From assembly GCA_963934255.1 (NCBI GenBank), contig CAWVXU010000023.1, positions 1 to 32,002 of the forward strand: 32,002 nt of DNA. Direction: 5' to 3'. This document shows, piece after piece, positions 4,280-29,735 of the stretch; positions within the stretch are counted from its first letter, which is position 1; every line of letters starts with the position of its first letter. This DNA comes from an uncultured Fibrobacterales bacterium. GTDB taxonomy: Bacteria > Fibrobacterota > Fibrobacteria > Fibrobacterales > CAWVXU01. The position numbers and the translations under genes were made by a program. Under the pieces are notes generated by a model. It was not told the origin of the DNA, did not search any database, and saw only the letters and a list, made by a program, of their open reading frames with translations.

Positions 4280-4296
4280 CCGTAGGTTTCCTTTTT

Positions 4297-4460
4297 ACTC
4301 GAGGTAGGTCTTCTGACTCAACTTCATCCTACTCTTAGCCCTTCCCGACTCTATGGGAGTCAGTGGTGATACTAATTTCGTCAGTCTTACAGCGGCGGGA
4401 CCGTTTCCGATTTACACGGAATTCCCTTTTAATCTCTCGCTATGAGAGAACCTAGAGTTA
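4297..4460 (-). promoter_or_regulatory. Cobalamin (AdoCbl) riboswitch
   Basis: Minus strand reads AGGTTCTCT..AGAGATTAAAAGGGAATTCCGTGTAAATCGGAAACGGTCCCGCCGCTGTAAG..CCACTG..GGGAAGG..GAGTCAGAAGACCTACCT, containing the hallmark elements and the B12 box. Confidence 0.96.
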
Positions 4461-4593
4461 TGATCGAACAAACTTAGTTTGACTCTTAAAAAATGTCAAA
4501 CAAGATCTCTGCTCTATTTTGCTTTTGTTAAGTTTAGCTCAATATGGCTGAATGCATTTGAATTTAGCTGGTTGAAGTTTAAAAGGAGAAATA

Positions 4594-13750: not shown

Positions 13751-14593
13751 TTAAACGGACTCTAGATCACTATCCCAAACAAAGTTTGATTCCATGCAAA
13801 GGGCTGGGATATCACCACTAGGCTTCCCCACCATTTTGGCTGGAACCCCTGCATAAGTGGTATGATTAGGAACATCAACTAAAACGACAGCACCTGCTCC
13901 AATTTTGGCATTGTTTCCGACTTTGATATTACCCAAAAGTTGAGCGTGGGCACTTAAAAGTACACCATGGCCAATTTTTGGGTGTCTATCTCCAGATTCT
14001 TTACCCGTTCCACCAAGAGTCACTCCATGTAGTATGGAGACATTGTCGCCAACTTTAGCCGTTTCACCGATGACTAAATTAGTTGCATGATCAATTAAGA
14101 TACCAGTACCAATTCTTGCAGCCGGGTGTATATCAACTGAAAAACTTTGAGCTGCTAATGATTGAAGTAATTTAGCGGTCATTTTTTTGCCTCGACGCCA
14201 GTAGACATGAGAGGCTCGATAAACTTGTAGTGCTTGAAAGCCTTTAAAGAAAAGAAGTGGTTCCAGATAATATTTACATGCCGGATCACGGTCCACATAG
14301 GCCTTCATATCTTCACAAGCGGCCCAAAGTAAATTGTCTGAGCGTTGGAAGGCGTCAAGGAGTAGAATCTCTACCTCACAAGAATCGAGACTATGATGAT
14401 CAAGCTTAAGTGAGAGTTGGTGAGCGAGCGCTTGACAGAGAGAGTCGTGTTCGTGGACTTGGTGAATAAAGAACTTATTGAGAAAAGGTTCAGCTTTGAC
14501 CACAGTACGTGCCTGAGATTTGATTTCTTTCCAAAAATCTTGATGCATCTTACGTTTGTCTGTAGATGTAGTGACTTTGTTTTTTTGACTCAC
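13751..14593 (-). CDS. cysE: Serine O-acetyltransferase
   Basis: RDPAC, FKGFQALQ, VDIHPAARIG, DHAT, VTLGGTGKESGDRHPKIG; GTG start with GAGGAG RBS. Confidence 0.97.
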   Translation of the reverse strand: MSQKNKVTTSTDKRKMHQDFWKEIKSQARTVVKAEPFLNKFFIHQVHEHDSLCQALAHQLSLKLDHHSLDSCEVEILLLDAFQRSDNLLWAACEDMKAYVDRDPACKYYLEPLLFFKGFQALQVYRASHVYWRRGKKMTAKLLQSLAAQSFSVDIHPAARIGTGILIDHATNLVIGETAKVGDNVSILHGVTLGGTGKESGDRHPKIGHGVLLSAHAQLLGNIKVGNNAKIGAGAVVLVDVPNHTTYAGVPAKMVGKPSGDIPALCMESNFVWDSDLESV

Positions 14594-14708
14594 GATGACT
14601 CCTCAGATTTGACTAAAATATAGGATTTTAGACTCAATATCAGTTGAATTTGGGTCTAAGGAGCCCGTTTGGGGTGAAAATCACGAGTTTAGGAGTCATT
14701 GACAGCTG

Positions 14709-14942
14709 TTATTCTGGCTCTGCTGCTGACTCGGAGCTGGCTAGAGCTTGGTCAAGGTCAATTATCTTGGTCGCATTTGTCACTTCAGTGCTATGACCAT
14801 TTTTGACATAACGAATAAACTTTCTATGAGTCCAGATAATCCGATTAATACTTTTGCGAAGATCCACTAGCTCTTCACTTGTGAGCTCTTGTTGCTTGAG
14901 CAAGTTTTCATAAGTATCAAATTTATCTTCACAGTCCTTCAT
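14709..14942 (-). CDS. Hypothetical 77-aa helical ORF, possibly a remnant of a disrupted gene
   Basis: ORF only, adjacent to pseudogene fragments; no motif recognised. Confidence 0.3.
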   Translation of the reverse strand: MKDCEDKFDTYENLLKQQELTSEELVDLRKSINRIIWTHRKFIRYVKNGHSTEVTNATKIIDLDQALASSESAAEPE

Positions 14943-15018
14943 ATCAAATGATGTCTTTAAATGTCAGATTCAAATCACTGACTTCAGAGATGATAGTCGT
15001 CATTGAATCACCACCTGA

Positions 15019-15225
15019 GATTTTATTCATATTACGATATGAACCTTGCAGTTTGAAAGGCGGCTCGATACGATATTCATCAGCTTGACCAGCAGACTTG
15101 ATGCACTGAATATTGACTTTAAGTATCACATCTTGAGCACGTAGCATCTTTTTTAAGACATTTACAATTTCGTTAGTTTCTTCCGCAGCGTAATTAGCTT
15201 CAAACTCGATTCCTTCACGTGATCC
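15019..15225 (-). pseudogene. Internal fragment of a large 'DNA repair ATPase' (DUF3686-type AAA protein)
   Basis: EIVNVLKKMLRAQDVILKVN..IKSAGQADEYRIEPPFKLQGSYRNMNKI matches the block I recall from this family. Only ~70 codons of a normally very large gene are present. Confidence 0.75.
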
Positions 15226-15286
15226 AAATTCACTGAAGCTTTTGTGAAAACTCTTGAGTGAGCTGAGATTTCTGTTCATGGAAACT

Positions 15287-15866
15287 TTGAAAGAGAGGGG
15301 TGGTCTGTTTTTGGAAATGTTCGAGACGACGAGCAAATTCAATATAGTCTAGAGAATATTTACCTTCAGTGATTTGAGAATGATCACCCATCATCGCAGG
15401 TATCTCACTCGAAGAACTCGCAGGAGAAGGCTTGTTTGAAGCAGATCTTTTGGCTAGGATCAGTCATACAACTTGACGCATTCCCCCAATCAGAGAGCGG
15501 CGTGAAGACATCCCAAACCTTACCCTTCATTTCATTCAAGAAATGCATCAAGATATTCCGAATTGAGAAGAACGAAAATTTGCCCCCAAAGTATTTAAAA
15601 CTCTTCAAGAGTATCATTGGCCAGGAAATATTCGTGAGCTCAAAAACACTATCGAGTGCTTATACTTATATAGCATCAATAGTGTGATTTAAATGGATGA
15701 ATTACCTGTAGCTCTTAACGGGCAAAAAGTGGAGTCCTTTCAGCGAAGCTTGTTGATGGAAGCTATGGAGGCAAGTGGACATAACCCAAAGACTGCTGCG
15801 GATAAGCTGAGTATGAGTTATGATCAGTTCAGACATTATTTTAAAAAATTAAAAAATACTCTGTAA
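15287..15866 (+). pseudogene. Sigma-54-dependent enhancer-binding activator (PspF/NtrC-like) pseudogene
   Basis: One frame from 15405 reads GLFEADLLARI..*RIPPIRERREDIP..*..YHWPGNIRELKNTIE..*..AADKLSMSYDQFRHYFKK (Fis HTH), with in-frame stops at 15474, 15564 and 15690. A degenerate HGNFER/GGLFLE (GGTLFLDE-like) block lies upstream; the 5' end is missing. Confidence 0.9.
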
Positions 15867-15905
15867 GGCTTTAGTGAATCCAAGTTATTATGATCGAAAT
15901 CAGCT

Positions 15906-15949
15906 AAATAAAAAGGCTCCCCTATCTAACATGGGGAGCCTTTTTATTT
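15906..15949. terminator. Bidirectional intrinsic terminator (3' end of the conserved element, copy 1)
   Basis: AAATAAAAAGGCTCCCC-N10-GGGGAGCCTTTTTATTT. Confidence 0.85.
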
Positions 15950-16032
15950 TTCAGGAGAATAAGAATGAGCCAGCGAAAATGAATATTACAAAATGCGAAT
16001 GATGTGGTTTTTCAAAAATTGAGTGGCTCAAA
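15911..16032 (-). ncRNA. Candidate sigma-associated structured ncRNA, copy 1
   Basis: Homologous to 28421-28545 (~63/81 identical in the core, hand alignment); closing stem TGAGCCA/TGGCTCA; ends in a terminator; no conserved ORF. Confidence 0.5.
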
Positions 16033-16052
16033 CGAGCGAAATTAAAGTTTGC

Positions 16053-16109
16053 TATGACACATTGATTCTAGAAAAAGGAGAGAGAAGTTTTAAAAATCAA
16101 TGTGCCATA
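16053..16109 (-). other. Long hairpin with a pyrimidine-only loop
   Basis: Minus strand TATGGCACATTGATT...AATCAATGTGTCATA (15 bp with one G-U, which favours the minus strand) enclosing CTTCTCTCTCCTTT. Confidence 0.65.
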
Positions 16110-16119
16110 AAATGAGCTT

Positions 16120-16174
16120 GAAAAAAGGCCCTCCCTCCAAATTCGGATACCTGAATTTGGAGGGAGAACTTTTC
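16120..16174 (-). terminator. Intrinsic terminator-like hairpin after sigma copy 1
   Basis: CTCCCTCCAAATTC-N8-GAATTTGGAGGGAG followed by GGCCTTTTTT on the minus strand. Confidence 0.75.
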
Positions 16175-16191
16175 GGGGTTGTAAATTTTTG

Positions 16192-17049
16192 TTATGCTGC
16201 AGGGCGAAGTTCGCGTCCAACACCTAGCCCGCGTAGTTGAGCTAAAGCCTTTTCTTTGACTTGTCTTACGCGTTCTTTAGAGAGTCCAATCATTTTACCA
16301 ATCTCTTGTAAATTCATGGTAAATGATGATCCGATACCATAATAGTATTTAATCACTTCCTGTTGTTGAGAGTCAAGTTGATTCATTGAAGCTGTGATGT
16401 AATCTTTCATTGATTTGGCTTCACAGTATTCATCAGCACGAACTCCATCAGAAGGAGTAAGCTCAAGTAAATTAGATTCACCCTCTTCACCAACTGGTGC
16501 ATCAAGTGAGGCATGACGTTGACCCATTTTTAAAATATTGGCCACTTGCTTTTCATCATAATCGGTACTAGCTGCGATTTCTTCGTGGTCAAGAGTATAG
16601 TGGCCACCAATCGTTTGAACTAAGCGACTTGATTTTTTGTTTAAACGACGTAGTACGAGCTCTTTCTCAGCAGAGATACGGACGACGCGAGCTTTCTCAG
16701 CAATCGCTCGTGTGATTGATTGACGTATCCACCAAACAGCATACGAGATAAATTTGATTGGTTGGTTGTGATCGAAACGACGTGCGGCTTCCATCAGTCC
16801 CAAGTTGCCTTCGTTAATGAGTTCGTTGACTGCAATACCTTGGTTCTTATACATGAATGCGATATTAATCACAAATTTCAAATTTGAAACAACCAGTTTA
16901 TCCATTGCACGGCGATTACCGCGGCTTGCAAGTTCAAGAAGAGTCTTCTCTTCAGCTCTTTCAAGAAGCGGGTATTTGTTTACTTCTTTAATATACTGGT
17001 TATAAATTGAGTTCTCATCCCAGTCTTTGCGAGTAGCAGTTGCAGCCAT
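16192..17049 (-). CDS. RNA polymerase sigma-70 factor, RpoD/RpoS-like without region 1.1 (copy 1)
   Basis: Regions 1.2 (YIKEVNKYPLL), 2 (SNLKFV, LINEGNLGL, KFISYAVWWIRQSI), 3 (SLDAPVG) and 4.2 (LQEIG..LSKERVRQ). ATG at 17049 preferred because of the AAGGA RBS; the ORF track starts at GTG 17070. Confidence 0.95.
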   Translation of the reverse strand: MAATATRKDWDENSIYNQYIKEVNKYPLLERAEEKTLLELASRGNRRAMDKLVVSNLKFVINIAFMYKNQGIAVNELINEGNLGLMEAARRFDHNQPIKFISYAVWWIRQSITRAIAEKARVVRISAEKELVLRRLNKKSSRLVQTIGGHYTLDHEEIAASTDYDEKQVANILKMGQRHASLDAPVGEEGESNLLELTPSDGVRADEYCEAKSMKDYITASMNQLDSQQQEVIKYYYGIGSSFTMNLQEIGKMIGLSKERVRQVKEKALAQLRGLGVGRELRPAA

Positions 17050-17128
17050 CTTAAGTTCCTTTGTTCGCACTGAATCATTACTTGTGCGTTTTCTTATATA
17101 TCTAACTTATCTCTTTATGAGCACTTGA

Positions 17129-17180
17129 TTGTCACAAGTTTGTCACACTTAGGCAAAAGACCTGTCGCGGTTTTGTGGCA
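17129..17180. promoter_or_regulatory. 11-bp-periodic direct-repeat operator upstream of sigma copy 1
   Basis: TGTCAC 17130, TGTCAC 17141, TGTCGC 17163, TGTGGC 17174; same phasing in copy 2. Confidence 0.65.
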
Positions 17181-17445
17181 TTTCTGACCAAAGGTTGTTT
17201 ATAGCCGATAAAGGGTAAAATGGGTTAAAATAAGTTTTTGAGAGTAGGGAAGTTTTGAAAGAATTACTGGATTGTACTGTGATAAATAAATCTCGGTAGA
17301 TGACTACCTGTCTGAGTTGAATGACACTAAGGCGTGGCCTTCATTTTTCCTTTTTGTTTTTCATCAATCCCTGTATCTTAAGTACTTTTAGTTCTTGTAT
17401 AAACTGACTACCTTTCTTTCTAGGAAGAATTGAAATGGGCGAATC

Positions 17446-18699
17446 ATGAAAAGTGACATAAAAATACACATCATTGGCGCCGGAATGAGTGGTCTTATCG
17501 CTGCGAAGGTACTTGAAGAGAATGGTTATGCTCCCATCATTCTCGAGGCAAGTGATCGAGTCGGTGGTCGCGTGAAGACATCCATCATTGATGGTTATCA
17601 TCTCGACCATGGATTTCAAGTTCTTCTCACTGGTTACCCTGCGGCTCAGAAGCATCTCGATTACACAGCTCTTGACCTTCAGACGATTGCACCTGGGTCT
17701 GTTATATTTAAACTCAAGCAACAGAAGATAATGGGTGACCCGATTCGTGATTTATCCCTCTTGCTTCCTACGCTTCTCTCAGGCATTGGAACTCTCCAAG
17801 ATAAGCTTAAGATACTGAAGCTCAATTCCGAATTAAAGTCGAGCCGGATATCTGATATCTTTAATAAAAGTGAGAAATCAACACTGATCTATCTAAGAAA
17901 TTATGGGTTTTCTGAAGGGATCATCCAAGAATTTTTTAGACCCTTTTTTAGTGGTATTTTTCTTGAGTCACAGCTCAAAACTTCTAGTAGGATGTTTGAG
18001 TTTGTTTACAAGATGTTCGGAGAGGGTTATGCTGCCATCCCCAGAGAGGGGATGGAGGCGATACCCCGACAGGTTTATGATGGGCTTGCTCAATCCACTT
18101 TCCTGTTTCAATCACCCGTAGAATCTATCCGCGAAGGGAGCATTCATCTTGAGGGTGGAAGGAGACTCACCACAGATTATACTATTATCGCCACTGACCC
18201 CTCTATGTTCATACCCGATCGAAAACCGACGAATTGGAAATCATGCGACACTCTCTATTTTAAATCTAAGAAGAGAGCCATAAGGCAAAAATTAATCGGA
18301 CTCATTGCAGAAGAAGGTTCATTGATTAATAACCTATTTTACCCGAGTTGCCTAGGACAAAGGCAGCTCCATCAAGAAGAGCTTCTCTGCGTCACAGCCC
18401 TCGATAGTCAGGGCCTCCATGAAGATGATTTGATTCAGAAAATAAAGCATGAACTCGAGGAGTATTGCGACATTCGGGACATCACACTGGTGAAGGTAAT
18501 GAGAATTCCCCAATCTCTGCCTGATAGAGCAGACCTACAATATCATTCAGACCAAAGTCAGACGCTCCACAATCAAACTGTATTTATAGCAGGGGACCAA
18601 GAACTCAATAGCTCTCTAAATGCTGCTATCTTATCAGGAGAAACTGCAGCTAATAACTTGATAGAACTAATCACGAACTCGGGTGATTCTTCGAATTAA
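17446..18699 (+). CDS. FAD-dependent oxidoreductase (flavin amine oxidase / protoporphyrinogen oxidase-like family)
   Basis: [33 protein letters not shown]...[10 protein letters not shown]. Confidence 0.9.
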
Positions 18700-19822: not shown

Positions 19823-22024
19823 ATGTTAAGATATCTTTTACTCGTTTTCTCTAGTCTCCTTTTCTTTAGCGGTTGTTACGACTCAATCATTCCTGATGAG
19901 GAATCGAAAAGTCATGAATCAGAACTTTTTGATAAGGGTACCTTATCCTTTCTTCAAGATGATAATGGCGTCCGCAATGTTTATGGTTTTAAAAGTGCAC
20001 GTTTGACAGATACACTCAAAATGACGTGGAATGATGAATTTAATGGTAAGACTCTCGATGGCAATAAATGGTCCGCTGCACCAGAATGGCCCAGACAGGG
20101 CGGAAGTTACTGGTCTGACAAAAATTATGAGATGACTGGTAATGGCCAAGTAAAATTAAAAGTGAATGAAATCAATGGCGTTGTTTATGCCGGCGCAATC
20201 CGCACTCACAAAAAGTTTGATCAGAAGTATGGATATTTTGAAACAAGAACTAAGCTTCCAGAGATCCGCGGTGGATGGGCTGCTTTTTGGCTCATGCCTT
20301 ATGGTAACAACCCGGGAGGGTGGGGACACGATGGCACGGAGATTGATGTTTTTGAGTCTATTAATGGTTGGAATGGCAAGATCAATCACGCACTTCATTG
20401 GGATGGTTATGGCGCTGAACATCAAAAGTCATCCATTAGTCAAAACAGACCCGATCTCTACGATGGGAAATACCACACTTTCGGTATGCTATGGACACCG
20501 GACGAATATGTGTTCTATATCGATAACGTTGAATCTTGGCGCTCTGACGCTGGTGGCGTTGCCGATGTGAGTCAATACTTAAAGCTCACACTTGAGGTGT
20601 CCTCAGGGACATGGGCGGGAAATTGGAATCACCAGAAGGAAAGGTCAATTGATTGGTTAGTCGATTACGTTCGTGTGTATGACTACAAAGCAGCTAAACC
20701 TGAACCTAAGCCTGAACCTAAACCTGAACCTAAACCTGAGCCTAAACCTGAGCCTAAACCTGAGCCTAAACCTGAGCCTAAACCTGAGCCTAAACCTGAA
20801 CCTAAGCCTGAACCCCGAGACCCTTTGAGTGTCTCCTATGCTAAACTCACATCTGGAACAAGTGTTTCAGTGGGAGCTCAAATCCCTATGGATGTTGAAC
20901 TGGCTGGACAACTCAGTGATGCTGATGAGCTTCAATTCCTTGTGAGAAAAGGAAATGGGTCATTTGAAATTCAGAAAAAAACAGATATCGGATCAAAAAC
21001 CAAGTATGCTTACACATGGACTCCTCGTGAACCGGGTGAATACGCACTGAGAGTGACTGCCAACAAGAATGGTAAATACCACACACATGTTATCTCGAAT
21101 ATAACCGTGCAAGGCTCCATCACCCCATTTGCAGTAAAATTTGAAAACCTCAGCTCTGGTCTTAGCTTCCAAGCCAATGAATCAATCCCGATGAATGTTC
21201 TTCTTACTGGAGATCTCACCGATGTCGATGAACTTCAATTTCTTACCAGTTTGGGCGATGGTGACTTTATCGAAGTTTTCACCACTCAGGTCAATCAATC
21301 AGACAGGTATAACTACTCTTGGGTCCCAACCCAAGCTGGAGAGTACAATCTCAGGGTGACAGCCAAGAAGAAGGGTGCTTATGTCAAACACACCGTAGTC
21401 AACGATATCACCATCATAAAGGTGGCTGAACCTCTTAAACTAGCCTATACTATCCTGAAGAACAATGATGTTTACGGGGTGAAAGATCAGATCCACATGC
21501 ACGTTGAACTTTCTGGTGATACGGAATCAGCTGATGAGTTGAGGTACACTCTTCAAAGAAAAGGCGATCCTTCTTCAGTCCTTCAGTCCTCTTCTATTCA
21601 CCTTGACCAGAATCTCTATTGGAACACCTGGGTCCCCACTGAGGCAGGAAGATATAAACTTAAGGTAATTGCCTATAAAGATGGTCATCAATTGACCCAC
21701 ACTGCGTCATGGGTGACTATCAAGGAGCCTTTGAAGATAAAATACCGAGTACTGAAGAATAACTCCAAGTTCAAACTCGGCGCCAAAATAAATATGCAAG
21801 CTGAAGTCTCAGGTGATTTAAGCCAAGCCAATAGAATGAGTTTTGTAGTTCAAAAAAATGGCGGACCTGACAAGGTGATTAAGTCTAATGTGATCCGCTC
21901 CTCCAAAACGATCTATAACAAGAAGTGGACTCCCTCTGAGCCAGGAAGGTACAGACTCAAAGTTCAACTTTACCGAGACAATGACTTTCTTAGTCACCGA
22001 GTCGCTAATGTAGTCGTTAGATAA
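19823..22024 (+). CDS. GH16 glycoside hydrolase lipoprotein with KPEP linker and four Ig-like repeats
   Basis: Lipobox FFSG-C; WNDEFNG, WAAFWLM, catalytic EIDVFE, VDYVRVY; four ~100-aa repeats with WxPxxxGxYxLxV. Confidence 0.92.
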   Translation: MLRYLLLVFSSLLFFSGCYDSIIPDEESKSHESELFDKGTLSFLQDDNGVRNVYGFKSARLTDTLKMTWNDEFNGKTLDGNKWSAAPEWPRQGGSYWSDKNYEMTGNGQVKLKVNEINGVVYAGAIRTHKKFDQKYGYFETRTKLPEIRGGWAAFWLMPYGNNPGGWGHDGTEIDVFESINGWNGKINHALHWDGYGAEHQKSSISQNRPDLYDGKYHTFGMLWTPDEYVFYIDNVESWRSDAGGVADVSQYLKLTLEVSSGTWAGNWNHQKERSIDWLVDYVRVYDYKAAKPEPKPEPKPEPKPEPKPEPKPEPKPEPKPEPKPEPKPEPRDPLSVSYAKLTSGTSVSVGAQIPMDVELAGQLSDADELQFLVRKGNGSFEIQKKTDIGSKTKYAYTWTPREPGEYALRVTANKNGKYHTHVISNITVQGSITPFAVKFENLSSGLSFQANESIPMNVLLTGDLTDVDELQFLTSLGDGDFIEVFTTQVNQSDRYNYSWVPTQAGEYNLRVTAKKKGAYVKHTVVNDITIIKVAEPLKLAYTILKNNDVYGVKDQIHMHVELSGDTESADELRYTLQRKGDPSSVLQSSSIHLDQNLYWNTWVPTEAGRYKLKVIAYKDGHQLTHTASWVTIKEPLKIKYRVLKNNSKFKLGAKINMQAEVSGDLSQANRMSFVVQKNGGPDKVIKSNVIRSSKTIYNKKWTPSEPGRYRLKVQLYRDNDFLSHRVANVVVR
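20696..20815 (+). repeat. 12-bp tandem repeat x10 encoding (KPEP)10
   Basis: AARCCTGARCCY repeated over 120 bp. Confidence 0.95.
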
Positions 22025-23740: not shown

Positions 23741-24025
23741 TTATTTGGGCTTATACTGTGTTTTACAGTGAAATCGAGACATTTCAGACGATCGTTTTGA
23801 TAAGTGCTTCATACTCACTTTCGAGTTGACTCGTTTGCGCCAATTTCGAAAGGAACGAGACTTGAGATGGGAACGCATGCAATCGATCACCTGTTTCTCA
23901 CTCATTCCAAATTGATATTCGATCGCTTCAAAGGGTGTGCGGTCTTCCCACGCCATCTCGATGACTCGCGTGAGGTCTTCTGCTTTGAGACTTTGTTCCA
24001 CAGGGCGTTTATTTTTTTTATCCAT
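23741..24025 (-). CDS. TIGR03643 (DUF2805) family protein
   Basis: RVIEMAWEDRTPFEAIEYQFG..MRSHLK..SFRNWRKRV signature; commonly found beside photolyase genes. Confidence 0.9.
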   Translation of the reverse strand: MDKKNKRPVEQSLKAEDLTRVIEMAWEDRTPFEAIEYQFGMSEKQVIDCMRSHLKSRSFRNWRKRVNSKVSMKHLSKRSSEMSRFHCKTQYKPK

Positions 24026-24130
24026 GAGCCTAACTTAACTTGATTTGTTCTATCAATCTATCATTTCAGACCAAAGGTGATTTTAAGATTATTGCAGTGA
24101 TAATGATGACTATCACCAAGAAGCTCCATC

Positions 24131-25612
24131 TCATTGGTAAAGTCGCTGCAAATAATCCTCTGCGATTTTCAGATGCTTCTGCTGTTTTTCCGGGGCTTGC
24201 CGCTGCCAATTGGCATAAATCATCTTCGTTCTAAAATTCTTGGAAAAGAAATCAGCATGTTTAGATATAAATCTCCAATAGAGTGCATTCCAAATCTCTG
24301 TCCATTCACCCTTAGGGTAGTTAGACATCTTGAGGATATAGTTTGATCCGGCTATGTAGGGCTTAGTAGCGAAGATACCCCCATCTGAGAATTGACTCAT
24401 ACCATAAATATTGGGGACCATCACCCAGTCATAAGCATCGATATACATCTCCATAAACCATTGGTAGACATCGTCTGGTTTGATCTCACAAAGCAACATA
24501 AAATTCCCCAGTACCATGAGTCTTTCTATGTGATGGTTATAAGCTGTTCCCAAGAGCTTCTTGATCGTTTGATCAATGGGAGGAATACCGGTCGTTCCTG
24601 AATAAAAAGCTTCCGGCATACTACGATCAAAACCCCAATAATTCCTCGTTCTCATCTCAGAGCCAACTGTCAGATAAAGGCCCATCATAAATTCTCGCCA
24701 GCCAAGTATCTGCCTGATGAAACCTTCTAAAGAATTAATAGGAATATTCTGTTGAGCCGCGTATTCGATAGAAGTACTGATGACCTCTTTCGGTTCTATT
24801 AAGCCTGTATTTAACATCGGACTGATCACAGAGTGATTTATCCATGACTCCTCACTGAGGATCGCATCCTCGTAATCACCAAATTCAATAAAGCGATGCT
24901 TCAGAAAGTCTTTGAGCCACTTATGAGCGCTCTCATGGTCAATTGGGTAGGTAGAATGGGTCGTCAGGCTACCTGGATTATCAGGAAAATGTGCCTCGAC
25001 GTAGAGGATGGCCTCATTCCATTCGACTCGCTCCCCCAGGGTTGTCATGTCAGGGGGGGTCTTATTTTTAGGATATTTTTTTCGGTTGTCATGATCAAAG
25101 GACCATTGACCACCTATGGGCTCACCTTGACCATCGACTAAGACCTTCCATTTTTTACGCTGAGCCTTATAAAAGTGGTGGTGTAGTATGGTCTTATTTT
25201 TTTTAAACTGATTGTCAAAATAGGAGTGTTCAGAATTTATCATCATAGGTGAAGTTAAGTAATTGATCTCAACACGATCACTCCATTGATCCAAAGCTTT
25301 CTGCACCCAATTATCATAGGGTGAGAAGAAGGAAACCTGCGTCCAATCCTGTTGGATGAGATAAGGATCCCAATGAGTCAGAGAGGCTTCCATTTGGTGG
25401 TGCTCAATATAGAGTGTTTTCAGCCCCTGCTTCTCTAACTTTTTCTGGAAGGATTTCATAGTCGCTCGATGATAAGCTAGCTTCGCTTTATGAAACGAGT
25501 AAAGGCTAAAGAAATGATACTCTTCAATAAAGACAATCAGATCAAATTCAAGCTCCTTGACAGAATGAAAAAGTTGGTTGGGCAGTAGTACAAGTACTTT
25601 ATCTTTTGACAT
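24131..25612 (-). CDS. Prokaryotic (6-4) photolyase / FeS-BCP family member lacking the Fe-S cysteines
   Basis: PNQLF, HKAKL, GGQWSFDHDNRK, EGFIRQILGWREF, YNHHIERLMV, DAYDWVMVPN, TKPYIAGSNYI; only one Cys in the protein. Confidence 0.88.
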   Translation of the reverse strand: MSKDKVLVLLPNQLFHSVKELEFDLIVFIEEYHFFSLYSFHKAKLAYHRATMKSFQKKLEKQGLKTLYIEHHQMEASLTHWDPYLIQQDWTQVSFFSPYDNWVQKALDQWSDRVEINYLTSPMMINSEHSYFDNQFKKNKTILHHHFYKAQRKKWKVLVDGQGEPIGGQWSFDHDNRKKYPKNKTPPDMTTLGERVEWNEAILYVEAHFPDNPGSLTTHSTYPIDHESAHKWLKDFLKHRFIEFGDYEDAILSEESWINHSVISPMLNTGLIEPKEVISTSIEYAAQQNIPINSLEGFIRQILGWREFMMGLYLTVGSEMRTRNYWGFDRSMPEAFYSGTTGIPPIDQTIKKLLGTAYNHHIERLMVLGNFMLLCEIKPDDVYQWFMEMYIDAYDWVMVPNIYGMSQFSDGGIFATKPYIAGSNYILKMSNYPKGEWTEIWNALYWRFISKHADFFSKNFRTKMIYANWQRQAPEKQQKHLKIAEDYLQRLYQ

Positions 25613-27062
25613 ATTTATCTACAATCGCTAAGTGATATTCTCTTGCTGAGTATGATTTTTTCAGTCCCCAAAGTTTGTCTTTGGCACGCTTTCCAGAGAG
25701 GCCCACATCAGCTATGGGTGCTGGATAATCCTTGGTAATTTCAAAAAGTAGCTTCTCCATCTCATTGAGTTTCCAGGGCTCATGGATGGTATGTTCTGGG
25801 TGACCCCTCAACTCGGGAATCCAATGTTTGATGAATTTGCCTTGAGGATCTTTCTGTTGAGATTGACGGATCGGATTATAAATCCGAATGGTATTGATAC
25901 CCGTGGTTCCGGCTTGCATTTGAAACTGAGGATAATGAATACCTGGCTCGTAGTCTAGGAACAATCTAGCCAAATGATAACTGCCCTCTCTCCAATCAAT
26001 ATCAAGATGATGGCAAAGGAAAGAAACCAACATAGCTCTCATCCGGAAATTGACCCATCCTGTTTCAATGAGGGCTTTCATGCAGGCATCTATAATGGGT
26101 ATTCCTGTGGCCCCTTCCTTCCAAGCATTCAGATGTTGACTTGAGGAGTTCTGGTAAACGTCTTCGTAAAGGGGGTGAATGCATTGATTTTCGTAATGAA
26201 CATTTATCTCTAATTTCTGTGTAAAATGACAACGCCACCTTAAACGGTCCTTGAATGCCTTCACTTGCCTCTTTTGACCTTTCTCGAACTCATAATTATC
26301 TATCACTGTATAGATTTGTTGCGCACTGAGATTACCCCATGCAAGATAAGGCGATAACCGACTGCATGACTTGCGACTTTCGTAGGGTTGAGAGATATGG
26401 TAGGTGTAGGATTTTATCCTTTCTTGAATGAATCCATTGAGATACCTCCATGCGTAGGACTCACCTGCTGGTTGATAGAGTGGAGGATAGGATTGAAGCT
26501 TATTTCTCAAATCATCGGGTAAATTGAACAGTGCCAAGCTACTTTGACTGAGAGGTCTGATGAGGCGAGAACCCAAATGCTGCACTAGATATTTCGGCAT
26601 GGCCGACTTCATTTTTTGGTACCACTTTTTCCTCCAATCGCCCCTCTTTTCTGATCCGCGGATAACTCCGTCCTTCTGAAACTCCACCCACGTGATTCCT
26701 TGAGCATCGAGATGACGCTTGACCTGCTTATCTCGATTCCAGGAATTGAGAATCCCTGTCTCTTGATAAGAGTAAACACTTTTGATGGTGAAATGCTGCC
26801 GCAGGTGTTCTATCACGTCAAGAGACTTTCCATAGAAAATCTCCACCCGACTTTGCAGGCTCTTCAGTTCCTCATTCATAGAGGCAATGGAATGGTAGAT
26901 AAATTGCAGGTGCCTCAAAGAAGTGTCATGGTGTTGAATGAGTTCGGGATCCATGATATAAAGGAGGATAAAATCTTGATCGGCATTGAGAGCTGCCTCG
27001 ATTGCATGGTGTGCTCTCAACCTGAGGTCTCTCTTCAGCCACACTACATTGATGGGCTTCAA
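25599..27062 (-). CDS. DNA photolyase/cryptochrome family protein (canonical two-domain topology)
   Basis: VVWLKRDLR, SRLSPYLAWG, GWVNFRMRAML, FLDYEPGIH, RIYNP; TTG start overlapping the upstream stop. Confidence 0.9.
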   Translation of the reverse strand: MKPINVVWLKRDLRLRAHHAIEAALNADQDFILLYIMDPELIQHHDTSLRHLQFIYHSIASMNEELKSLQSRVEIFYGKSLDVIEHLRQHFTIKSVYSYQETGILNSWNRDKQVKRHLDAQGITWVEFQKDGVIRGSEKRGDWRKKWYQKMKSAMPKYLVQHLGSRLIRPLSQSSLALFNLPDDLRNKLQSYPPLYQPAGESYAWRYLNGFIQERIKSYTYHISQPYESRKSCSRLSPYLAWGNLSAQQIYTVIDNYEFEKGQKRQVKAFKDRLRWRCHFTQKLEINVHYENQCIHPLYEDVYQNSSSQHLNAWKEGATGIPIIDACMKALIETGWVNFRMRAMLVSFLCHHLDIDWREGSYHLARLFLDYEPGIHYPQFQMQAGTTGINTIRIYNPIRQSQQKDPQGKFIKHWIPELRGHPEHTIHEPWKLNEMEKLLFEITKDYPAPIADVGLSGKRAKDKLWGLKKSYSAREYHLAIVDKYVKR

Positions 27063-28195
27063 AATATTTCACCCTTTTCATCCAAGGCAATTCGGTATTG
27101 TGTGCACTTCTTCCAGTACTTAAAAAAAGAGGGGTAGTAGCCCTGAATTGGATGAAGAGTTTCTTTCGGATAGGAATGCCCCTGATAATGAGTGCATGTG
27201 GGATGCTCTTGATAGTGCACCACAGAGGCTCCTACTTGAGCCTTGAATTCACTGTACTCACCGACAAAAATCTTGATGCCAGGGATATTCTGAGAGAGGT
27301 CTAACATGAACTGAGCACACTGAGATGATATGGGGAAGCGTTGAAAGTGGCTTGGCTCCAAAAGAAGGACACGCTGTGCATCCTGCTTGTCTTGATGCCA
27401 CAGAGGATCTAAATGGTAATAATTCGAGAGGATCGTCTCCCTGATTTCGAGGGTGTCTGACTTCAGCTTTCCTAACCAGTCAATGGAGAGGCAGAGATCA
27501 AGTTCCTGTGGACTGATAACATCTTGAAGTTTGGCTGGTCTCTTTGATAAAGGGAAATTCTCGTATTCTGTATCGAGGAAAGTGCCCTGCTGGTCACCTT
27601 CAAAGAAGTGGTTCATGTTGGATTGATTCATCCAATACTTCTTGTTGGAAAAAGTCCCTGCAACCCATTGCCAACTCAGAGTATTAGAAGCGATGTCTCC
27701 GTCTAATAGATGATAGTAGAACCACTTAGCACCCATTCTCCAGTCACAATCCGCAAAATTGGTGTGGACTGAAGCGAGATACATTCTCAAGTGGTTATGA
27801 ATGAAACCACTCTGATTTAGTTCATCTATGGCGCGATTTATGATGTCAACACCTAAAGAGCCATCAAAAAAACATCGAGGAATGCCTTTCCTGATCTCGT
27901 CACCTTGTGAGTGTTTTAAATCATCAAATAATTTGTCACCAAGGGCTTCCCAACAACCCTGGTAGTATTCTCTCCAAGTGAGCTCCTGTAGGAACTTGAA
28001 GCATTCCTTGGCGCTGTAGCCCTGGGTTCGAATTCTATGATAGATCCAACGCGGAGTGATGACACCCCGAGAGATATAGGGTCCAAGTTGGCTGATGTGA
28101 CCTGAAGAATAATTTCTTGTCTTGGCGTAATCTACCGGATTGATTTTATCAACAAGGGAGATAATCTCATGCATTTGTGTCGGAAAATTGTTCAT
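27059..28195 (-). CDS. Short photolyase with N-terminal FAD-binding domain (NewPHL-like inverted topology)
   Basis: YAKTRNY, SQLGPYISRG, QELTWREY, HNHLRMYLAS and LLDGDIASNTLSWQWVAGT all lie in the first ~185 aa; no N-terminal antenna domain. Confidence 0.82.
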   Translation of the reverse strand: MNNFPTQMHEIISLVDKINPVDYAKTRNYSSGHISQLGPYISRGVITPRWIYHRIRTQGYSAKECFKFLQELTWREYYQGCWEALGDKLFDDLKHSQGDEIRKGIPRCFFDGSLGVDIINRAIDELNQSGFIHNHLRMYLASVHTNFADCDWRMGAKWFYYHLLDGDIASNTLSWQWVAGTFSNKKYWMNQSNMNHFFEGDQQGTFLDTEYENFPLSKRPAKLQDVISPQELDLCLSIDWLGKLKSDTLEIRETILSNYYHLDPLWHQDKQDAQRVLLLEPSHFQRFPISSQCAQFMLDLSQNIPGIKIFVGEYSEFKAQVGASVVHYQEHPTCTHYQGHSYPKETLHPIQGYYPSFFKYWKKCTQYRIALDEKGEIF

Positions 28196-28420: not shown

Positions 28421-28545
28421 AAAATTCCCAATCTAAAACTGGGAGCCTTAATTGTGTGTCTATGAGGAGAATGAAATTGAGCCTACTCAAATGAATATGA
28501 CAAACTGTGAAGGATGTGGATTTTTAAATTCTTGAGCGGATCAAA
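28421..28545 (-). ncRNA. Candidate sigma-associated structured ncRNA, copy 2
   Basis: Homologous to 15911-16032; closing stem TTGATCCGCTCAA/TTGAGTAGGCTCAA; homologous terminal hairpin GGCTCCCAG..TTGGGAATTTT; begins 35 nt after the sigma stop. Confidence 0.5.
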
Positions 28546-29438: not shown

Positions 29439-29516
29439 CTTAAGTTCCTTTGTTTGCAAAGATTATTGCTTGTGCGTTTTCTTATAGATATAAGTTATCT
29501 CTTTATGGGATAGCCA

Positions 29517-29568
29517 TTGTCATAGGTTTGTCACAGCGAGGCAAAAGAGATGTCGCGGTTTTGTGGCA
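29517..29568. promoter_or_regulatory. 11-bp-periodic direct-repeat operator upstream of sigma copy 2
   Basis: TGTCAT 29518, TGTCAC 29529, TGTCGC 29551, TGTGGC 29562. Confidence 0.65.
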
Positions 29569-29735
29569 TTTTGGACTAGGAGTTGTTTAAGAACGATAAA
29601 GGGTGAAATACATTGTCCAAAGCAACATACTCATAGCTTTAGTTTATCAAAGAAGTTTTGCATTTTAAATAATATACCCTTGACTCCATCCCTCAAAAGT
29701 GATTAAATTCAATAAAAATTGAGAGGGAGACTCCA

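Follow-up and report, generated by a model that had tools for sequence, protein, structure and literature searches.

The 3′ end of an alternative sigma factor mRNA of Fibrobacteria probably also acts as a small RNA switching other genes off

Introduction

Base-pairing small RNAs (sRNAs) of type II, which derive from the 3′-untranslated region (3′UTR) of an mRNA, include CpxQ (from cpxP), SdhX, SorX, RsaC and s-SodF, as described in the accessible parts of PMC7821165 and PMC9438474. The tail of the sigma factor mRNAs analyzed here resembles this class, since it shares the mRNA terminator, its 3′UTR is more conserved than synonymous sites, and repression in trans is predicted. Also, its seed differs between lineages, as is described for SdhX in the accessible part of PMC7821165. 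Unlike in that class, the parent is a sigma factor mRNA and Hfq was not found, and both processing and repression are predicted here. Table 1 of PMC7821165 names no sigma factor mRNA as parent, the closest being ArgX from argR.

Another related system is MicL of sigma-E, a non-coding repressor arm of the sigma regulon (accessible parts of PMC9438474 and PMC7821165). Like MicL, the sigma tail would give an activator-only sigma factor a means of repressing genes, but MicL-type sRNAs are made by the sigma factor from other loci, whereas here the regulator would reside on the sigma mRNA itself. In Staphylococcus aureus, the icaR 3′UTR carries a UCCCC anti-RBS motif acting in cis on its own ribosome binding site (RBS) (PMC7821165, accessible part). 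The sigma tail likewise has an anti-Shine-Dalgarno (anti-SD) motif in the 3′UTR of a regulator's mRNA; in contrast to icaR, a preference for its own RBS was tested and is unsupported. The cuckoo/CcsR RNAs of Alphaproteobacteria and RepG of Helicobacter are sRNAs with CU-rich anti-SD loops. A CU-rich single strand in a loop is also present in the upstream hairpin of one copy described here (copy A) and in one genus (g29), but the element has no Rfam match at gathering score, belongs to another phylum and is embedded in a sigma 3′UTR. With 6S RNA (RF00013, RF01685), association with sigma is the only likeness; there is neither a model match nor a conserved rod with a central bubble.

Our literature search, covering titles and the beginnings of abstracts, found no sRNA of Fibrobacterota and no sRNA derived from a sigma mRNA. 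If the reading preferred below is true, the element would be a family of regulatory RNAs in a phylum where our searches found no sRNA described so far, would place the repressing arm of a sigma factor on the mRNA of that factor, and would show how seeds diverge once a gene has been duplicated.

Results

Two paralogous sigma factor genes

The window, i.e. the whole stretch of 32,002 nt analyzed in this study, is one contig of a 2.67-Mb assembly with 38.6% G+C and a completeness of 92%. It harbors two sigma-70 family genes, copy A and copy B (Table 1), whose named relatives come from Fibrobacter, Hallerella and Fibrobacteria. For copy A, the ATG at 17049 was taken as start codon, whereas the open reading frame list begins at the GTG at 17070. 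Both proteins score below the cut-offs of the RpoD, RpoS and RpoH models and pass only that of the sigma70 superfamily (TIGR02937), and they were therefore classed as alternative, non-primary factors. Four more distant sigma-70 genes are located elsewhere in the genome. A match (E 1e-70 or better) was obtained in 195 of 296 Fibrobacterota genomes, nearly always as a single gene and only in the own class. RNA runs containing the window region are of marine or aquatic origin. Among the relatives, an orthologous sigma factor and the T9SS-type candidate target described below are identical to proteins of the cultured, cellulolytic strain Fibrobacter succinogenes S85 (ACX74459.1; FSU_1684/ACX74826.1).

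Table 1. Positions of the sigma factor genes, their upstream regions and the predicted parts of their 3′ ends in the window.
Feature	Positions	Strand	Remarks
Terminal intrinsic terminator of copy A	15906..15949	-	U-runs on both sides
Seed of copy A	15953..15976	-	anti-SD CUCCU (mostly unpaired), spacer, anti-AUG, anti-codons 2-4
Variable loop of copy A	15986..16004	-	7/19 positions differ in relative X9
Closing stem of copy A (7 bp), 5′ arm	16024..16030	-	pairs with 15966-15972; no compensatory change
Long A/U hairpin, copy A only	16052..16110	-	limits approximate; loop shows UCUCUCUCC at 16077-16085
First terminator-like hairpin, copy A only	16121..16169	-	17 bp and U-run; single copy in genome
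Sigma-70 family factor copy A, 285 aa	16192..17049	-	alternative, non-primary group
Conserved promoter/5′UTR of copy A	17050..17225	-	TGACA direct repeat, 11-bp spacing, at 17130-17146
Terminal hairpin of copy B	28421..28449	-	weaker; G-U pairs forming on the minus strand only
Seed of copy B	28465..28489	-	unpaired anti-SD and CAA (anti-UUG)
5′ part and loop of the copy B element	28490..28545	-	
Sigma-70 family factor copy B, 285 aa	28581..29438	-	86% aa identity to copy A; dS ~1.06
Conserved promoter/5′UTR of copy B	29439..29613	-	same TGACA direct repeat at 29518-29534

The 175 nt upstream of the two sigma genes are as conserved as the 3′ element (139 of 175 identical); conservation between the copies is not unique to the 3′ side. 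In this upstream region, the TGACA direct repeat precedes a TA-led -10-like hexamer by about 20 nt, and with the same 11-bp spacing it is found before the sigma gene throughout the class (L002, L018, L151, L162-L178). The repeat resembles an OmpR/PhoB-family box. When the own genome was scanned with a promoter matrix, just three weak sites came up besides the promoters of the two sigma genes, and no regulon could be drawn from this.

A constrained element between sigma stop codon and terminator

Between the sigma stop codon and the intrinsic terminator of the same mRNA lies an element for which the original prediction had claimed homology of the two copies, slower divergence than at synonymous sites, unequal distance to the stop codon, an anti-SD-like motif with a homologous terminal hairpin, and neither a conserved reading frame nor a known RNA family. 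These claims were borne out. Positions 15953-16032 and 28465-28545 share 63 identities in 80 columns plus one gap (93 of 119 over the full predicted span; blastn E 1e-12), and the absence of a third copy in the 2.67-Mb assembly by blastn shows that the element is no genome-wide repeat. Both copies carry the anti-SD-like ATTCTCCT followed by the homologous terminal hairpin. The distance to the sigma stop is 160 nt in copy A versus 36 nt in copy B, and two hairpins private to copy A fill its longer spacing. In comparison with the element, the four-fold sites of the sigma genes are more diverged, with only 49 of 104 identical (pS 0.57, dS ~1.06, at a dN of 0.08); for the core of the element (51 of 64) against these sites Fisher's test gives p 2.6e-5, an optimistic value, as the core was picked as the best-matching stretch. 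The plus strand offers SD-led frames of five codons and overlapping 7/14-codon frames, but no peptide is kept, and by eye the latter frames are changed almost only non-synonymously in a third variant, X9 (see below). In the Rfam 15 scan of the window and eight orthologous loci, the element stayed below gathering score, with sub-threshold, terminator-driven hits only. Considering constraint relative to dS, the lack of a conserved peptide and the absence of a repeat, the view of a constrained, non-coding, sigma-linked 3′ element holds: it is a real, constrained 3′-end module of a class-wide alternative sigma factor.

Searches with the element itself, by blastn in 296 Fibrobacterota genomes and by nhmmer on 30 loci, returned only short chance hits outside the own genome. 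The nearest available genome with an intact 3′ flank has about 57% sigma identity, and the same-family assembly G001 breaks off inside the sigma gene. In a metagenome scan for the sigma locus, an identical copy (L031) and a truncated contig were recovered; two scans of genome contigs for closer sigma loci gave nothing in the first case and mostly other phyla in the second.

The conserved part is an unpaired anti-SD segment

The fold is more weakly conserved than predicted. A closing stem kept despite sequence changes had been proposed, and copy A indeed forms seven base pairs, but copy B breaks two of these seven and none of the changes is compensatory. With the two copies as input, RNAalifold retained the terminator and not the closing stem, and folding z-scores of the closing-stem region are only -1.8 and -2.0. 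The idea of a conserved structured RNA thus finds no backing, as these two sequences show no covariation. Instead, the conserved part of the element is the unpaired anti-SD segment just before the terminator, not the fold. According to folding, four of the five anti-SD bases in copy A and all five in copy B are unpaired with a probability of about 0.9-1.0.

A consensus -10 motif at 16065-16070 in copy A is altered in X9, and an internal promoter of the element is therefore unsupported. The element does not fit a CsrA sponge of the CsrB/RsmZ type, because several GGA motifs in loops are required for this and none is present on its minus strand; a search for CsrA in two Fibrobacteraceae, both of which keep the tract described below, gave no hit.

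RNA coverage in a close relative

Four of 22 listed RNA runs were mapped to positions 14000-18500 of the window, using assembled, strandless contigs. In run X9, a metatranscriptome contig of 1063 nt with about 95% identity extends from 17016 to 15955, i.e. from the sigma coding sequence (CDS) across the extra terminator-like hairpin of copy A and through the element, and stops short of the terminal hairpin by a few positions. Coverage of this kind is absent from the flanking genes. The other three mapped runs contain the CDS only or end just past the stop codon, where the lack of cover is uninformative. The X9 contig may thus represent RNA coverage continuous from the sigma CDS into the element, presumably from a single transcript of the sigma strand, although DNA carry-over in the RNA library may also account for it.

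Changes in X9 were counted among the 40 of 56 differences listed, the remainder apparently lying beyond 16614 to judge by their order. Among the differences listed, none is located in the 31-nt seed, against a pS of 0.10 (P 0.036). Two changes, one in the closing stem and one in the first hairpin of copy A, keep the pair as G-U, and three in weaker helices break a pair.

A pyrimidine tract before the terminator across the class

In the 3′ flanks of sigma orthologues, a U-run is followed by (UC)n, often with CCU, and then by an A-rich spacer and the terminator. From 146 genomes of family f3 with a sigma match, identified as Fibrobacteraceae by protein names, 45 loci were taken (best-scoring ones returned plus hand-picked ones; genus g11 left out). 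TCTCC or TCTCTC is present within 60 nt of the stop codon in all 45, compared to 13 of 290, 19 of 291 and 71 of 1985 other genes. The motif was defined after viewing Fibrobacteraceae flanks and kin are non-independent, so that the counts describe a pattern rather than test it: UCUCC/UCUCUC lies within 35 nt of the terminator stem in 42/42 Fibrobacteraceae orthologues with a called terminator, and in 2/59 (G029, sigma removed), 1/60 (G039) and 6/295 (own genome) controls, pooled 9/414, where 400 kb each of G029 and G039 were sampled and simple custom scripts served to call genes and terminators. Among sigma homologues from other phyla the tract was found in 1 of 26. One locus titled Fibrobacteraceae (L034) has no tract.

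In other families of Fibrobacteria the tract is patchy. It precedes the called terminator in both f4 loci, in the single f6 locus and in 13 of 19 f7 loci, and in none of two f5 and five f8 loci; in two f2 loci no terminator was called. An alignment with the long f4 tails gave no convincing homology past the final motif. Nine genomes of genus g29 have a nearly invariant CU tract inside a closing stem and a terminator stem with two-sided compensatory changes, and the architecture of this tail resembles that of the element in the window. The Fibrobacteraceae form consists of about 35-55 unstructured nt plus terminator. A tract of this type, UCUCUCUCC, occurs in the long A/U hairpin of copy A, this loop being one of 10 occurrences of the 9-mer in the own genome. 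The only core common to all families is UCUC in a single-stranded U/C-rich stretch.

In the four genomes that yielded a 16S sequence (no match was obtained in the own assembly), the anti-SD of 16S rRNA is canonical. An altered 16S anti-SD is thereby excluded in these four, where the tract can accordingly be called anti-SD-like.

A candidate target of copy A

The seed of copy A is predicted to pair with a start region located on a different contig of the same assembly, that of a DinB-like gene (L244:1935-1957, minus strand; G000:C116). The duplex comprises 22 Watson-Crick pairs with one mismatch and one bulge; in it, the SD faces the anti-SD and AUG faces CAU. This site, settled after seven query segments had been tried, ranks first among 2202 start regions with -36.3 kcal/mol, the next reaching -29.9. 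It is also the best non-self site among 1386 seeded sites genome-wide on both strands (-35.3 versus -26.7), for a 24-mer cut after the match had been seen. None of 85 energy shuffles of the first set matched it. In three constrained shuffle sets, the anti-SD together with the anti-start, the entire GC-rich core, or every base in common with copy B was left unchanged; the energy of the target was attained in 0/294, 0/304 and 0/322 cases (0/920 in total), by a shortcut that was checked on six cases. Under a match-count null it was reached by 21/1511, 30/1361 and 66/1314 (p 0.014-0.05); an anchored match-score null was similar but leaky, with gaps reaching the anchor, and adds nothing.

The gene encodes 144 aa and precedes a glutaredoxin-like gene. 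It has no Pfam hit of its own, but aligns (34%, E 2e-19) to a protein above the DinB_2 cut-off, and the base composition of its contig fits the own genome. A DinB-like gene was found in only 9 of 295 other Fibrobacterota, so that conservation offers no test of the pairing. Bacillithiol transferases are among the DinB/YfiT-like proteins (PMC10950700, accessible part), and the protein may be one. In one other genome (G280), the orthologous sigma gene is followed after 3.2 kb by a DinB homologue (L287:3541-4011), a single case that was not used.

Copy B and candidate targets in relatives

At the DinB-like site, copy B pairs poorly (rank 66 of 2202). By eye, all seven private seed bases of copy A pair with this target, while those of copy B give five mismatches and two wobbles. 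The best start-region match of copy B is a UUG-started methyltransferase gene on contig C27, which heads a cluster with bshC-like, bshB1 and bshA genes; copy B has CAA where copy A has CAU, and copy A ranks this site 16th. The match is not significant, as it was reached by 13 of 104 energy shuffles and by 166 of 1216 or more match-score shuffles. The locus (L286, G000:C27:16500-23300) combines the methyltransferase with genes of bacillithiol synthesis, possibly in N-methylated form, in a marine Fibrobacterota. N-methyl-bacillithiol is made by a methyltransferase in Chlorobi and Bacteroidetes (PMC6282198, accessible part), and the C27 enzyme is possibly such a methyltransferase. Because the copy B match is not significant, the thiol theme common to both targets is only a lead.

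When five f3 genomes were searched with a pattern, one family of secreted proteins of about 300 aa with a T9SS tail stood out. From 25 loci examined, 22 were used after dropping one wrong start and two paralogues of 28-29% identity without the repeat; ten partial-domain loci lay outside this set of 25. AGAGAG is present within 22 nt before the AUG in all 22 members, compared to 3 of 291 and 0 of 288 control start regions; GAGAGAG is found in 18 of the 22, and 18 of the 22 had not been selected by the pattern. With the sigma tail of the same genome the AG-repeat forms 7-12 perfect pairs in all 21 cases with tail sequence, and in G124 both the tail and the T9SS start region show matching changes. 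The energy rank of the site is only 46 of ~291 and 22 of ~288, and tail and T9SS site covary only weakly, with a permutation p of 0.02-0.03 that becomes a median p of 0.07-0.10 when each genus is represented by one genome. In the leader of this family, which is short and conserved (FSU_1684 and kin; L225, L233, L234, L236, L245-L259), a small GCCC/GGGC hairpin and an A/C-rich stretch are followed by the AG-repeat, which replaces the normal SD. A literature search on FSU_1684 found nothing.

In G274, the tract has just one other perfect match, which covers 15 bp and falls at a start region; this target is not common to 13 homologous start regions in eight other genomes. For family f4 no convincing target was obtained. 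An AG-repeat before rplP was dropped as a target, as it is the end of the upstream coding sequence. Accessible seed complementarity accordingly differs between the cases: for copy A it was reached in 0/920 shuffles by energy and is borderline by match score, for copy B it is not significant, and for Fibrobacteraceae it is weak.

Discussion

A sigma factor mRNA with a predicted repressing tail

We consider it fairly probable that the 3′ end of the sigma mRNA is a base-pairing repressor in trans, either derived from the 3′UTR or acting as full-length mRNA, in genomes where Hfq was not found; the sigma factor message would then probably also act as a small RNA switching other genes off. Of the two roles proposed by the original prediction, that of a 3′UTR-derived sRNA gains support from the anti-SD tract across Fibrobacteraceae and part of the class, from the strong candidate target of copy A, and from RNA coverage in a relative.

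In the proposed mechanism, transcription would start at the sigma promoter, presumably on the minus strand, and proceed through CDS and 3′UTR to the intrinsic terminator. The last 75-130 nt expose the unpaired anti-SD 7-15 nt before the terminator stem, as folding and positional conservation show. Release may occur by endonucleolytic cleavage in the A/U-rich loop, possibly by RNase E/G, which is encoded in all five genomes searched, or the RNA may act as full-length mRNA. The anti-SD would serve as a toehold pairing with the SD of other mRNAs, zip across the start codon and open the weak closing stem. Thereby, loading of the 30S subunit would be blocked and the sigma factor would gain a repressing arm. 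The predicted target of copy A is the DinB-like gene leading the glutaredoxin-like operon. The seeds diverged after duplication, and copy B most likely has other targets, possibly the methyltransferase heading the bacillithiol cluster. In Fibrobacteraceae, the module is the short U-run with (UC)n, and the candidate target the secreted T9SS-type family with its AG-repeat before the AUG.

Hfq (PF17209) was found in none of five genomes, where the control matched 5 of 14 and the own assembly is 92% complete. The Hfq-dependent sRNA class is not fitted, since Hfq was not found. Long pairing over SD and start codon is what is expected without Hfq. A wider reading, which we offer tentatively as a possibility, is a sigma mRNA with two outputs across much of Fibrobacteria: the protein would switch genes on, and a re-targetable, Hfq-free cassette against ribosome binding sites would switch genes off. 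This cassette would be conserved in position and re-aimed in each lineage, towards the AG-repeat mRNA of secreted proteins in rumen Fibrobacteraceae and towards thiol-redox genes in the marine lineage, where the tails of copies A and B would split AUG and UUG targets, both related to bacillithiol.

Alternative explanations

The tract could instead be a cis element for protein binding or decay (RRM protein, S1, Rho-type YC tract or nuclease entry) that sets half-life or 3′ end of the sigma mRNA, with target matches as by-products. UCUC in single-stranded context being the sole core common to the families would suit such an element, as would an RRM protein in four of five genomes, own included, and the restriction of targets to lineages or their weakness. 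We nevertheless regard it as unlikely: it does not account for the match of 22 bp that copy A makes in register, for the 31-nt seed staying invariant in X9 or for the conserved complementary AG-repeat in one Fibrobacteraceae family, and G039 keeps the tract without an RRM hit. Control in cis could also take the form precedented by S. aureus icaR (PMC7821165, accessible part), with the anti-SD folding back on the SD of the own sigma gene and limiting translation. All orthologues viewed have an SD, with which any anti-SD pairs over 4-8 bp, and the permutation of own 5′ against own 3′ ends leans in this direction (p 0.08). Against this stand the lack of significant covariation of these ends in 60 orthologues (p 0.078, inflated by kinship) and the rank of the own start region, 352 of 2202 for copy A and 1555 of 2202 for copy B, which make the fold-back decidedly improbable.

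For the other role originally proposed, an RNA binding sigma or RNA polymerase (6S- or Ms1-like) and co-inherited with its partner, no positive evidence turned up, and we hold it very improbable. The linkage to the sigma gene fits it, as does the result that RF00013, with its control matching, found no 6S RNA in G000, G001, G002, G029 and G039, which leaves the 6S RNA of the phylum unaccounted for; Fibrobacterota 6S RNA may be divergent or missing. The element has no conserved long helix with a central bubble, however, the closing stem is without covariation in two sequences, the Fibrobacteraceae form is unstructured up to the terminator, and there is no 6S match in Rfam (the RF01685 search, run without a positive control, carries no weight). 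An antisense tiny ORF or uORF-like unit on the plus strand is a highly improbable source of the conservation, even though both copies show AGGAG, 7 nt, AUG/UUG and AGC and a stop after five codons at the same position. The peptides differ without a synonymous pattern, the overlapping longer frame is broken in copy A and carries non-synonymous changes in X9, the bidirectional terminator of copy A leaves no space behind it for a plus-strand promoter, the hairpin of copy B needs minus-strand G-U pairs, and the antisense AUG is absent from most Fibrobacteraceae tails. Gene conversion or a DNA-level site without RNA function could be suspected from the loop, in which 4 of 19 positions differ between the old paralogues versus 7 of 19 between copy A and its 95% relative, and from a TTGAG-N3-CTCAA palindrome in the 5′ part of the copy A element. 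This explanation is barely credible, because recent conversion would give near-identical tracts and not 79%, because three X9 changes make a perfect 7-bp helix, as one template switch would (by eye), and because the tract keeps its orientation and position with respect to the terminator from one family to the next.

Further features of the window and of relatives

Converging on the copy A terminator, positions 15400-15866 of the plus strand contain a fragmented remnant that by eye resembles a C-terminal portion of a sigma-54 activator, ending in a PspF-like helix-turn-helix. Directly downstream of the weak copy B terminator, 23741-28195 (minus strand) encodes two photolyase/cryptochrome-like proteins, a photolyase-related protein and a TIGR03643 protein, and read-through past this terminator could link the photolyase cluster to the sigma gene. 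A cobalamin riboswitch (4286-4470, minus strand, 118 bits) is followed downstream by genes that were named by eye: one for a probable TonB-dependent receptor, one for a lipoprotein and a cobalamin adenosyltransferase-like gene. Furthermore, a probable glycoside hydrolase contains a PEPK-type 12-nt tandem repeat (20670-20837), and a lipoprotein contains a triple repeat of 51 nt (1953-2105). Behind a tRNA gene of one relative (L181, G016:C4:5500-6200), a tRNA 3′ end is repeated several times in degenerate form with hairpins following, resembling an integration-site scar or tandem tRNA-derived repeats.
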